Notes under the pieces: generated by a model
Databases searched by the model: none
Seen by the model: only the letters and a program-made list of their open reading frames with translations
Told to the model about the DNA's origin: nothing
Part shown: positions 42,901-61,591 of the stretch, one piece after another
Position numbering within the stretch: position 1 is the stretch's first letter
How the letters are laid out: every line of letters starts with the position of its first letter
IMG/VR virus record: IMGVR_UViG_3300020187_000013
Strand: one strand, 5' to 3'
Source: an uncultured virus (IMG/VR IMGVR_UViG_3300020187_000013)
Lineage: Duplodnaviria; Heunggongvirae; Uroviricota; Caudoviricetes
Length of the DNA: 61,591 nt
Translations under genes and position numbers: made by a program

Positions 42901-45900
42901 GCTACTACAATTACTGGTTTAGACTTAAATCCAAATATGGCTATGCTGTCTAATATTAGTGGAAAGGTATCTGTTTCCGATAAAGTAACCACTACCGAAT
43001 TAGAATATTTAGATGGGGTTACTGGTCTCGTACAAGATCAAATTGACACTAAGCAGGTGATTATTACTGGAGCTGCTACTACAATAACTGGTTTAGACTT
43101 AGATCCAAATATGGCCATGATTTCTGATATTAGTGGTAAAGTTGCTGTTTCCAGTAAGGTTACCACCACTGAATTAGAATATTTAGATGGGGTTACTGGT
43201 CTAGTACAAGATCAAATTGATACCAAACAGGTGATTGTTACTGGAGCTGCCACTACTATTACTGGTCTAGACTTACAACCAAATTTGGCCATGATTTCCA
43301 ATATTAGTGGTAAAGTTGCCGTTTCCAATAAAGTCACTACCACTGAATTAGAATATTTAGATGGAGTTACTGGACTCTTACAAGATCAAATTGATACCAA
43401 ACAGGTCATTGTTACTGGAGCTGCTACCACTATTACTGGTGTAAATTTAGATCCAAATATGGCCATGATTTCTGATAACACTGGTAAAGTCGCTGTTTCC
43501 AGTAAAGTTACTACTACAGAGTTAGAATATTTAGATGGGGTTACTGGTCTCGTACAAGATCAAATTGATACCAAACAGGTCATTGTTACTGGAGCTGCTA
43601 CTACAATTACAGGTTTAGATTTACAACCAAATATGGCCATGATTTCCAATATTAGTGGTAAAGTTGCTGTTTCCAGTAAAGTCAGCATTACTGAATTGGA
43701 GTATTTAGATGGTGTTACTGGACCCTTACAAGATCAAATTGATACCAAACAGGTCATTGTTACTGGAGCTGCTACTACTATTACGGGTATAGACTTAGAT
43801 CCAAATATGGCCTTGATTTCCAATATTAGTGGTAAAGTCGCCGTTTCCAGTAAAGTTACTACTACTGAGTTAGAATATTTAGATGGTGTTACTGGATTGG
43901 TACAAGAACAAATTGATACCAAACAAGTCATTGTTACTGGAGCTGCTACCACTATTACTGGTATAGACTTACAACCAAACATGGCCATGATATCCGATAT
44001 TAGTGGTAAAGTTGCCGTTTCCAATAAAGTCACCACTACTGAATTAGAATATTTAGATGGAGTTACTGGATTGGTACAATCGCAAATCAATACTAAACAG
44101 GTGATTGTTACGGGAGCCGCTACTACTATTACTGGTACTGACCTAAATTCAAATATGGCCATGATATCCGATATTAGTGGTAAAGTTGCCGTTTCCAGTA
44201 AAGTAACTACTACTGAGTTAGAATATTTAGATGGTGTTACCGGACTCATACAAGATCAAATCGATACCAAACAGGTCATTGTAACTGGAGCTGCTACCAC
44301 TATTACTGGTATAGACTTACAACCAAACATGGCCATGATTTCCGATATTAGTGGTAAAGTTGCCGTTTCCAATAAAGTCACCACTACTGAATTAGAATAT
44401 TTAGATGGAGTTACTGGATTGGTACAATCGCAAATCAATACTAAACAGGTGATTGTTACGGGAGCCGCTACTACTATTACTGGTACTGACCTAAATTCAA
44501 ATATGGCCATGATATCCGATATTAGTGGTAAAGTTGCCGTTTCCAGTAAAGTAACTACTACTGAGTTAGAATATTTAGATGGTGTTACCGGACTCATACA
44601 AGATCAAATCGATACCAAACAGGTCATTGTAACTGGAGCCGCTACTACTATTACTGGTACCAACCTAAATTCAAATATGGCCATGATATCCGATATTAGT
44701 GGTAAAGTTGCCGTTTCCAGTAAAGTTACTACTAGTGAGTTAGAATATTTAGATGGTGTTACCGGACTCATACAAGATCAAATCGATACCAAACAAGTCA
44801 TTGTAACTGGAGCTGCTACCACTATTACTGGTATAGACTTACAACCAAACATGGCCATGATATCCGATATTAGTGGTAAAGTTGCCGTTTCCAATAAAGT
44901 CACCACTACTGAATTAGAATATTTAGATGGAGTTACTGGTTTGGTACAATCGCAAATCAATACTAAACAGGTGATTGTTACTGGAGCCGCTACTACTATT
45001 ACCGGTACTAATTTAGATACGAATATGGCCATGATTTCGGATAATAATGGTAAAGTTTCGGTTTCGAATAAGGTGACCACAACCGAATTAGAATATTTAG
45101 ATGGAGTTACTGGGCTTATACAAGATCAAATCAATACAAAACTATCTAGTTTAATTGCTGAATCTACTTATGATACTATAACAGGTGTTAATGCTAAAAT
45201 TAGTGGTGTAATAGGCAATGCACCAGAAGCATTAGATACATTAAAAGAATTAGCAGATGCTCTTGCAAATGACGATGATTATGCTACTACAATTACAAAT
45301 AATTTAGCAACTAAACAAGTTGTTATAACTGGTGCTGCTACATCTATAACTGGAAATAATTTAACACCTGATATGGCCATGATATCAAATATTAATGGAA
45401 AAGTTGCTGTTTCTAGTAAAGTTACTACCACTGAATTAGAATATTTAGATGGTGTTACTGGACTCCTACAAGATCAAATCAATACCAAACAGGTTATTGT
45501 AACTGGAGCTGCTACTACTATTACAGGTACTGACCTAAATTCAAATATGGCCATGGTATCCGATATTAGTGGAAAAGTTGCCGTTTCTAGTAAAGTTACC
45601 ACAACTGAATTAGAATATTTAGATGGGGTTACTGGATTGGTACAAGATCAAATCGATACCAAGCAGGTTATTGTTACTGGAGCCGCTACTACAATTACTG
45701 GTGTAAATTTAGATACAAATATGGCCATGATTTCGGATAATACTGGTAAAGTTGCTGTCTCCAACAAAGTAACCACAACCGAATTAGAATATTTAGATGG
45801 TGTTACTGGACTCCTGCAAGATCAAATTGATACCAAACAGGTGATTATTACTGGAGCTGCTACTACTATTACTGGTACTGACCTAAATTCAAATATGGCT

Positions 45901-46575
45901 ATGATATCCGATATTAGTGGAAAAGTTGCCGTTTCTAGTAAAGTTACCACAACTGAATTAGAATATTTAGATGGAGTTACTGGACTCCTACAAGATCAAA
46001 TCAATACCAAGCAGGTCATTGTTACTGGAGCCGCTACTACAATCACAGGTACGAATTTAGATACAAATATGGCTATGATTTCGGATAATACTGGTAAAGT
46101 TGCTGTTTCCAACAAAGTAACCACCACCGAATTAGAATATTTAGATGGTGTTACTGGACTCCTGCAAGATCAAATTGATACCAAACAGGTGATTGTTACT
46201 GGAGCCGCTACTACTATTACTGGTACCAACCTAAATTCAAATATGGCCATGATATCCGATATTAGTGGAAAAGTTGCAGTTTCCAGTAAAGTAACCACAA
46301 CTGAATTAGAATATTTAGATGGAGTTACTGGACTCCTACAAGATCAAATCAATACCAAGCAGGTCATTGTTACTGGAGCCGCTACTACAATTACTGGTCA
46401 AGACCTAAATTCAAATATGGCTATGATATCTGATATCAGCGGTAAAGTTGCTGTTTCCAGTAAAGTCACAACAACAGAATTAGAATATTTAGATGGAGTC
46501 ACTGGATTGGTACAAGAACAAATTGATACCATGGTAAAGTCGCTGTTTCAAGTAAAGTTACCACAACTGAATTAG
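33985..46575 (+). CDS. Giant fibre protein, segment 1: collagen-like N-terminal ~1980 aa (paralogue of genes 2 and 3) followed by 57/58-aa tandem repeats; ends after a frameshift at ~46531
   Basis: The probable start is ATG 33985 ([12 protein letters not shown]..., comparable to MSS/MSF starts of the paralogues). The TTG at 33898 only adds AT-rich spacer sequence. The last 15 aa ([14 protein letters not shown]) are out-of-frame repeat sequence. Confidence 0.85.
45139..45312 (+). other. Phage tail-fibre-like helical unit 1 ([26 protein letters not shown])
   Basis: Resembles the APxALDTLxELAxALxNDxxFATT motif of caudoviral tail-fibre proteins. Confidence 0.7.
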
Positions 46576-59717: not shown

Positions 59718-61591
59718 TACAAATATGGCTATGATTTCTGATAGTACTGGTAAAGTGGCTGTTTCCAGCAAAATAACTACGACAGAATTAGAATATTTAG
59801 ATGGGGTTACTGGCGTAGTACAGGATCAAATTGACACAAAACAGGTGATTGTTACTGGAGCTGCTACAACAATAACAGGTCAAGACTTAGTTTCAGGTAT
59901 GGCCATGATTTCTGATAATAGTGGAAAAGTAGCAGTTTCTAATAAGGTTACCACTACTGAATTAGAATATTTAGATGGAGTTACAGGATTAATACAAGAT
60001 CAAATTGAAACAAAACAGGTCATTGTTACTGGAGCTGCTACTACAATCACCGGTATTAATTTAGATGCTAATATGGCATTGATGTCCAATGCTGATGGAA
60101 AAGTTGCTATTTCGAATAAGGTTACCACTATTGAATTAGAATATTTAGATGGAGTTACTGGACTTCTCCAGGATCAAATCAATACTAAACAGGTGGTTGT
60201 TACTGGTGCCGTTACTACAATTACTGGAAGTAATTTAAGTTCTGATATGGCTATGATATCTAATAGTAATGGTAAAGTGTCAGTTTCTAATAAAGTTACT
60301 AAAATAGAATTAGAATATCTAGATGGAGTTACTGGTGTAGTACAAGATCAAATTAATACTAAATTATCAATATCAAATGCTGAATTAATTTATGATACTA
60401 TAACAGGAGTTAATGCAAAAATAAGTGGTGTTATCGGTAATGCGCCAGAAGCATTAGACACATTAAAAGAATTAGCAGATGCTCTTAATAATAATGATGA
60501 TTATGCCACTACAATTACTAATCAATTAGCAACAAAACAAGTAGTTATAACAGGTGCTGCAACTTCCATAACAGGAAATAATTTAGTACCAGAGATGGCT
60601 ATGTTATCTAATATTAATGGTAAAGTGGCTGTTTCTAATAAAGTTACATCAACAGAATTAGAATATTTAGACGGAGTTACTGGGCTCATACAAAATCAAA
60701 TCAATACCAAACAGGTAATTGTTACTGGAGCTGCTACAACGATAACTGGTACTAATTTAGATATTAATATGGCTATGATATCTGATACAGATGGAAAAGT
60801 ATCTGTTTCAAATAAAGTAACAACTACTGAATTAGAATATTTAGATGGAGTTACGGGATTAGTACAAGACCAAATCAATACTAAACAGGTCATTGTTACT
60901 GGAGCTGCTACAACAATAACAGGTACAGATTTAGATTCAAATATGGCCATGATTTCGGATAACACTGGTAAAGTGGCTGTTTCTAGTAAAGTAAGTAAGA
61001 CAGAGTTAGAATATTTAGATGGAGTTACTAGTCTTGTTCAGGATCAAATAAATAGGAAGCAAGTGATTGTCACTGGAGCTGCTACAACAATAACTGGTAC
61101 TAATTTAGATACGAATATGGTAATGATTTCTGATAATAGCGGCAAAGTAGCCGTTTCCAGTAAAGTCACTACAACTGAATTAGAATATTTAGATGGAGTT
61201 ACTGGACTAGTACAGGATCAAATCAATACTAAACAGGTTATCATTACTGGTGCTGCTACAACAATAACAGGTCAAGACTTAATTTCTGGAATGGCTATGA
61301 TATCTGATATAGATGGTAAAGTTGCCGTTTCTAATAAAGTCACTACTACCGAATTAGAATATTTAGATGGAGTTACTGGATTGGTTCAAAATCAAATTGA
61401 TACTAAACAAGTTATAATAACTGGCGCTGCAACGACTATAACAGGAATAAATCTTATTTCAGGTATGGCTATGATTTCTGATACAGATGGTAAAGTTGCA
61501 GTTTCCAGTAAAGTTACTAGTACTGAATTAGAATATTTAGATGGAGTTACTGGATTGGTTCAAGCTCAAATCGATACTAAGCAAGTAATTG
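59668..61591 (+). CDS. Giant fibre protein, segment 3 (absent from the ORF track; open to the window end)
   Basis: Frame 1 reads [29 protein letters not shown]... without a stop through to caa gta att g at 61591. It includes the third helical unit at 60361. Confidence 0.85.
60361..60534 (+). other. Phage tail-fibre-like helical unit 3
   Basis: [58 protein letters not shown]. Confidence 0.7.

Follow-up and report, generated by a model that had tools for sequence, protein, structure and literature searches.

A recurring helical cassette in a very long, array-built viral fibre gene and its probable place in a mosaic trimeric fibre

Phage fibres and adhesion genes of giant viruses are the closest described comparisons for the element studied here, a cassette of 58 amino acids (aa; 174 nucleotides, nt) that stands three times in an array of 58-aa units in an uncultured virus (IMG/VR IMGVR_UViG_3300020187_000013; the whole stretch analysed, 61,591 nt long, is hereafter called the window). 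A core of ~40 aa is shared between this cassette and phage tail or collar fibres, namely Bxb1 gp4 (PDB 9D93, ~203-240), 80alpha FibU gp68 (PDB 6V8I, 263-298) and PHROGs 23820, 8713, 2631 and 454. In phage fibres the core usually occurs as a single copy (71 of 81 core-bearing open reading frames, ORFs, in the fetched loci) and follows other sub-modules, whereas here it is repeated; the complete cassette of 58 aa is restricted to this gene family. The accessible portion of PMC7048315 gives the FibU part that matches the cassette as not resolved in its map, and that of PMC13252515 does not treat Bxb1 gp4. The array unit has described relatives too, as PHROG 16122 and a protein of phage PaBG contain the same 57-aa unit, in one to few copies in phages compared with more than 120 here.

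Two further systems bear on the architecture. In the alpha/beta coiled coils with beta-layers (Hartmann et al. 2016, PMC4786415, as far as the portion consulted goes; the Streptococcus prophage tail-fibre hyaluronidase 2C3F is an example), a Lys at the first beta-layer position caps the preceding coiled coil across the axis of trimeric fibres, tandem beta-layers with a second Tyr/Thr layer are common, and the layers join helical and beta-stranded domains. The present array would resemble them in its predicted homotrimeric state, its Lys at the putative first beta position, its putative Tyr/Thr layer and its presumed adaptor position between helical and beta parts, but Lys and Tyr are 10 residues apart here, compared with 7 in the tandem consensus that has been published. 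Phage-like adhesion and tail-fibre genes have already been reported in giant viruses (islands in PMC13620141; PelV-1 tail-fibre homologues in PMC12338748); like the present gene, these form collagen-rich, length-variable clusters with phage-fibre modules, but the available parts of the two accounts describe neither this unit, nor the cassette, nor arrays of more than 100 units. Five motif strings occurred in none of ~8.4 million full texts, a collection that leaves most subscription papers outside, and we found there no description of unit or cassette.

Against this background, the feature is real and its explanation is in essence an ordinary one: the gene would encode a mosaic trimeric virus fibre, array-built and very long, probably from a giant virus. 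We consider it likely that the cassette is a helical module of a homotrimeric, plug-together fibre, a trimer-forming piece that was inherited, multiplied by recombination within the array and kept by purifying selection.

The cassette and its three copies

The array gene lies on the plus strand and is composed as follows.

33898..39942, plus strand: N-terminal part of the array gene, with collagen-like Gly-X-Y runs alternating with repeated globular domains
39943..41310, plus strand: eight array units, older and diverged, each of 57 aa (171 nt), as is usual for the unit in homologues
41311..61591, plus strand: array of 58-aa (174-nt) units, continuing past the window end
45139..45312, plus strand: cassette copy 1, 58 aa, with a junction sub-module of ~17 aa and a helical core of ~40 aa common to phage fibres
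46450..46622, plus strand: frame break 1, where the unit near 46531 is short by 82 nt
53583..53756, plus strand: cassette copy 2, identical to copy 1 at 54/58 aa, in the frame of ORF 46599-59717
59640..59700, plus strand: frame break 2, where the unit junction near 59660 is short by 8 nt
60361..60534, plus strand: cassette copy 3, identical to copies 1 and 2 at 50/58 aa, in an open frame that leaves the window end

The preliminary description of this DNA had reported three cassettes at 45139, 53583 and 60361, each exactly 174 nt and dissimilar to the unit, and this is confirmed; in each case the preceding unit ends INT and the next one starts KQVVITG. Cassette and array unit have no detectable similarity by BLASTP (E 0.40), and hhalign gave a probability of 0.1% between a 76-row core profile and a 400-row unit profile, so that hidden homology between them is ruled out by both searches. 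A MAFFT overlay of 57-aa units on the cassette was a forced effect of global alignment, and these rows were left out of the modelling alignment.

The cassette had also been said to carry a motif of phage tail fibres. Profile searches against PHROGs bore this out for residues ~13-57, which matched 22-23 families per copy (best E 2.4e-14); roughly half of these have a tail or tail fibre annotation, and most of the others are unknown. In PDB, the core matched Bxb1 collar fibre gp4 and 80alpha FibU by sequence, with E values over the ~40-aa core of 2e-4 by phmmer and 5.7e-10 by profile (the latter for 9D93), while Pfam had no family at cut-off for either the cassette core or the array unit. Pfam matches of the array region were set aside as compositional, and a PDB match of the cassette to a lysozyme repeat was discarded as a sum of weak stretches. 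In IMG/VR, 75 stretches encode the 14-residue core motif exactly, in very different fibre contexts. An IMG/VR scan with unit-cassette-unit found no relative, and tblastn of the cassette alone against cultured phages returned 3 records only, which reflects the sensitivity limit for a 58-aa query; the Atlas searches yielded leads but no more, with best values of 0.90 and 0.87.

The phage resemblance holds for part of the cassette, as the shared portion covers residues ~13-58 only. The N-terminal ~17 residues are a separate sub-module, with a Lys cap followed by a Tyr motif that resembles tandem beta-layers. Among 168 cores scored for this part, at least seven matches were seen only in the window, in P0165, in P0019, in five copies at the metagenome locus L080 and at one other locus. 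A relative of the sub-module stands alone in L080 as a 19-23-aa module. Because the N-terminal 17 residues differ from the phage-shared core and also occur alone in L080, the 58-aa cassette is a lineage-specific fusion of two common parts and not a phage import of unit length. A 6556-aa environmental protein (P0013) carries 11 core copies that separate runs of short coiled-coil-like repeats, the core being a recurring node there in a type of shaft unrelated to this array.

The array unit is itself a phage virion module, since it matches the 'virion structural protein' family PHROG 16122 (E 2.5e-10 to 2.6e-16). One clear copy is found in the structural tail protein of Pseudomonas phage PaBG (AGS82132.1), and the unit also occurs in Microcoleus, Aeromonas, NCTB and vir335 phage proteins. 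The notion of a foreign phage piece inserted into a non-phage array was thus not upheld. PDB matches of the unit to the designed WD40 proteins Ika4/Ika8 were again summed weak stretches and were set aside.

The three copies had further been taken as being in register three times, in effect as independent evidence for a length rule. The section counts of 30 (8 units of 57 aa and 22 of 58 aa), 48 and 38 units are correct as counts of anchors, but the start-to-start distances between cassettes on the DNA are 48.53 and 38.95 units, out of register, because two units are short, and the three cassettes lie as assembled in three separate reading frames. Moreover, the copies are 83-90% identical in nt sequence (156/174, 147/174 and 145/174), at least as alike as the 58-aa units, whose mean pairwise identity is 81%; they therefore represent one length match copied twice. 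The KQVVITG variant of the junction occurs at 3 of 110 matched junctions, each immediately after a cassette. Recent block duplication of whole window sections received no support, as at none of the three sites do the flanking units exceed background in similarity (0.78-0.86), with the exception of the units after copies 1 and 3, which are mutual best matches (0.86).

The sequences flanking frame break 1 match sequence 440 nt downstream at 82/82 and 88/91 nt, which suggests either a local duplication of recent date, accompanied by deletion, or a fault in the assembly. The dN/dS ratio (nonsynonymous to synonymous substitution rates) is 0.09-0.17 for the three cassette pairs and 0.10 over 105 pairs of 15 middle-frame units. 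The cassettes are therefore under purifying selection, and with values of about 0.1 in both cassettes and middle-frame units, the frame breaks should be recent or errors of assembly. If both are assembly errors, the gene is a single frame that exceeds 9,200 codons, has more than 120 units and is still open where the window ends. Very recent local duplications are also seen at 43921-44964, where the units at 44095 and 44443 are 100% identical and those at 43921, 44269 and 44791 are 98-99% identical.

Module lengths in related arrays

A set of 257 homologous proteins was collected, the window's own included; the unit is carried by 248 of them, the core by 31 and both by 22. Distances from unit to unit in the homologues are 57 aa in 671 of 1424 cases and 58 aa in 38. 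Outside the window, the 13 distances from unit to cassette are 54, 58, 58, 58, 70, 74, 74, 81, 82, 120, 130, 139 and 182 aa, that is, 58 aa in 3 of 13, all in other proteins; the longest belongs to P0036, where a 182-aa insert follows a 58-aa unit of the window's type. Between full units we counted 538 inserts, 137 after dereplication, with lengths of 11-819 aa. Four of the 137 are 56-59 aa long, and 13 equal a multiple of 57 or 58 give or take one residue, about the share (7-10%) that our own arithmetic expects by chance; the five that contain the core are all 110 aa.

The locus L080, one of 22 metagenome loci, was the most informative for length. Its fibre gene (4532-19780) is an uninterrupted frame of at least 5083 aa that contains P0019, and it has 37 units, 36 of them of 57 aa. 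It also has five cassettes of 58 aa, 69-75% identical in nt sequence to those of the window and 79-87% identical among themselves. Each is followed by a 23-aa module and the four internal ones also by a 29-aa module, giving a 110-aa insert. On both sides of the array stand non-array domains whose arrangement is partly duplicated. The near-orthologue P0165 (84% identical) has the window's 57-aa units in the same order, then one 58-aa unit and the cassette, so that a single 58-aa unit precedes the cassette there compared with 22 in the window.

Because relatives place the same cassette among repeats of other lengths, the equality of cassette and unit in the window is a coincidence, an accident of one lineage. 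The preliminary description had proposed comparing cassette lengths in homologous arrays and had regarded variable lengths as fatal to its idea; lengths are indeed variable, and a structural constraint on length is contradicted by the distances above and by L080, with 58 and 110 aa against a unit of 57.

The shared junction and the explanations weighed

Unit and cassette both end in the motif [LI]xxK, the capping residue being K in 89 of 117 cores and in 915 of 1138 units. Modules of 19, 23, 29, 57, 58 and 74 aa all begin at the junction K, and in several homologues the core passes directly into the unit through the same K junction. The shared motif is probably a beta-layer that caps a trimeric coiled coil. 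The two modules differ in the single-chain model (predicted local distance difference test, pLDDT, of 72): the unit was predicted as an extended stretch, a beta-hairpin and then a helix, and the cassette as all-helical (helices 39-85, 87-101 and 106-116), with two turns inside the core at about residue 86 and 102-105. A single-chain model of two units (pLDDT 46) was too poor for use.

Modelling of a trimer, one of the checks proposed earlier, gave for three copies of unit-cassette-unit a score of 0.85 against 0.02 for the best of 3 controls, a prediction built from 8 of the 30 rows of our own alignment; of the solved pairs, 20 of 30 attain the mark used for this score, as does 1 of 23 single chains, and these counts are only a rough guide for three copies with an own alignment. 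pLDDT was at least 95 and contact agreement between runs at least 98%. The self-contacts K59-K59, Y69-Y69 and K117-K117 were among the lowest expected errors, as expected for beta-layers. From this model we infer a parallel homotrimeric fibre with modules joined at beta-layer junctions. A fold search with the single-chain model returned no PDB or BFVD match at E<=0.001; weak BFVD rows include tail-fibre proteins, and a wide fold search gave generic long helices only (Z about 6). The profile check proposed earlier was positive in PHROGs and PDB (9D93) and negative in Pfam.

These results are consistent with the following mechanism. Each module of the toolkit (the 57/58-aa unit, a 29-aa short unit, a 19-23-aa linker, the cassette and others) would terminate in a short coiled coil of three chains, with [LI]xxK closing it, most likely as a beta-layer that forms a C-cap. 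Because all end at the same lysine junction, any module could follow any other, whatever its length, and the register of the fibre would be set by the junction and not by module length. The cassette would be an all-helical, tightly trimerising segment with a core widespread in phage fibres, and would already have stood beside the unit in the ancestor of the gene family. In the present lineage the unit would have gained one residue (57 to 58), by chance equalling the cassette, and then been amplified, after which recombination within the array would have copied the cassette and its downstream junction twice.

Several points weigh against this explanation. The beta-layers are deduced from motif and contacts only; the complex model returned no secondary structure, the single-chain model has an unbroken helix at 39-85, and sequence searches gave no match to 2C3F. 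A resemblance to solved fibres, Bxb1 gp4 for example, may lie behind the trimer score. No hallmark gene of nucleocytoplasmic large DNA viruses (NCLDV) was seen in the window or beside the homologues. Finally, the cassettes of L080 are evenly placed, with 9, 8, 8 and 8 units between nodes (p 0.0008 under random placement, a post hoc test on one gene), and tests for a positional signal of recent block duplication were positive in 0 of 20 at p<0.05, so that the cassette may be more than a passenger.

The last point is the basis of the most serious rival, which we hold to be considerably less probable, namely that the cassette is a selected periodic node for registration or folding: a dissimilar, strongly trimerising helical knot would stop near-identical chains from pairing one unit out of step, or would nucleate folding, and its recurrence would be selected whatever its length. 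Beside the spacing in L080, where the copies have diverged as described and leave no trace of block duplication by position, this rival accommodates the cassette dN/dS of about 0.1, the dense and confident trimer contacts across the cassette, the recurrence of the core in other giant fibres (for instance the 11 copies in P0013) and the presence of the cassette in both long arrays examined, that of the window and that of L080. However, the window's spacing of 30, 48 and 38 units is irregular and not unusual for random placement (p 0.13 for the last two), and a 48-unit run without a node exists. The position is also not conserved in P0165, which has 1 unit where the window gene has 22, and 226 of 248 unit-bearing proteins lack the cassette, although most have short arrays. 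In L080 itself an old block duplication is possible, as some units have their best partners 567 or 623 aa away, which is one block. The periodic node of the preliminary description thus finds some support in L080 and none in the window, and L080 is better material for the idea.

Two other readings are far less probable. That the cassette must equal one unit in length to preserve the periodicity of the shaft, having replaced a unit, agrees with 58 = 58 in the window and in P0165, yet L080 accommodates its 58-aa cassette within a 110-aa insert among 57-aa units in its uninterrupted 5083-aa frame, P0036 has its long insert after a 58-aa unit of the same type, the window array itself mixes 57- and 58-aa units, and an all-helical module may well differ in rise from a mixed alpha/beta one with the same number of residues; we regard this reading as very improbable. 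It is similarly hard to believe that the cassette is a flexible hinge bending the fibre at three points, as the turns at about residue 86 and 102-105 of the single-chain model might suggest, since the trimer model is uniformly confident, with low-error contacts between chains all through the cassette, and a rigid knot fits it better. The inherited trimer module, multiplied by recombination and maintained by purifying selection, hence remains the explanation that we favour.

Host and meaning

The window is an AT-rich series of very large plus-strand genes, rich in Gly-X-Y repeats, and the N-terminal part of the array gene (33898..39942) is paralogous to the ORFs at 4030 and 16670. Such paralogous giant Gly-X-Y proteins occupy 4030-16314, 16670-25411 and 33898-39942 of the window and 1659-14564 of another locus (L003), and have long Thr-Gly-Trp/Ser/Ala-rich runs alternating with repeated globular domains; the one such domain that was tested had no match in Pfam. 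The 1209-aa ORF at 273-3902, whose true frame start may precede the window, gave a weak Laminin G/concanavalin-like match at its start (E 2e-5, below the Pfam cut-off), and the 2778-aa ORF at 25473-33809, between collagen-like genes, gave no Pfam match. At L080, positions 1-1533 upstream of the fibre gene encode a fusion that combines collagen repeats with a trypsin-like peptidase and a weak PDZ-like domain.

A 191-kb IMG/VR contig carries a homologue (49% identity) of the collagen-associated domain of the gene; the homologue has a single core and no units, and lies next to uninterrupted DnaJ, DnaJ-X, glutaminase-ankyrin and EEP genes. These neighbours fit a giant virus (Nucleocytoviricota) as the putative origin, where the protein would act as a surface fibre. 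Both modules are shared with phages, and unit and core may have arrived together. A bolder picture, which we think unlikely, would see giant viruses build fibres from a phage toolkit as single chains, from 5,000 to beyond 9,000 residues in length, with the helical trimer knot kept as a registration node whose spacing is selected (8-9 units in L080, relaxed in the window after recent amplification).

In conclusion, the length coincidence itself is of no importance. What the array offers is an anatomical description of a fibre toolkit that is widespread and for the most part unnamed. Its modules, whatever their length, would join at one lysine-capped junction, and this junction would explain how such genes gain or lose hundreds of residues and their products still fold. 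If the spacing in L080 is selected, it would open a way to test how homotrimers of very long repeat chains stay in register, which is relevant to virion appendages and to designed fibres, and the registration node, if true, would be a general solution for folding very long repetitive homotrimers.

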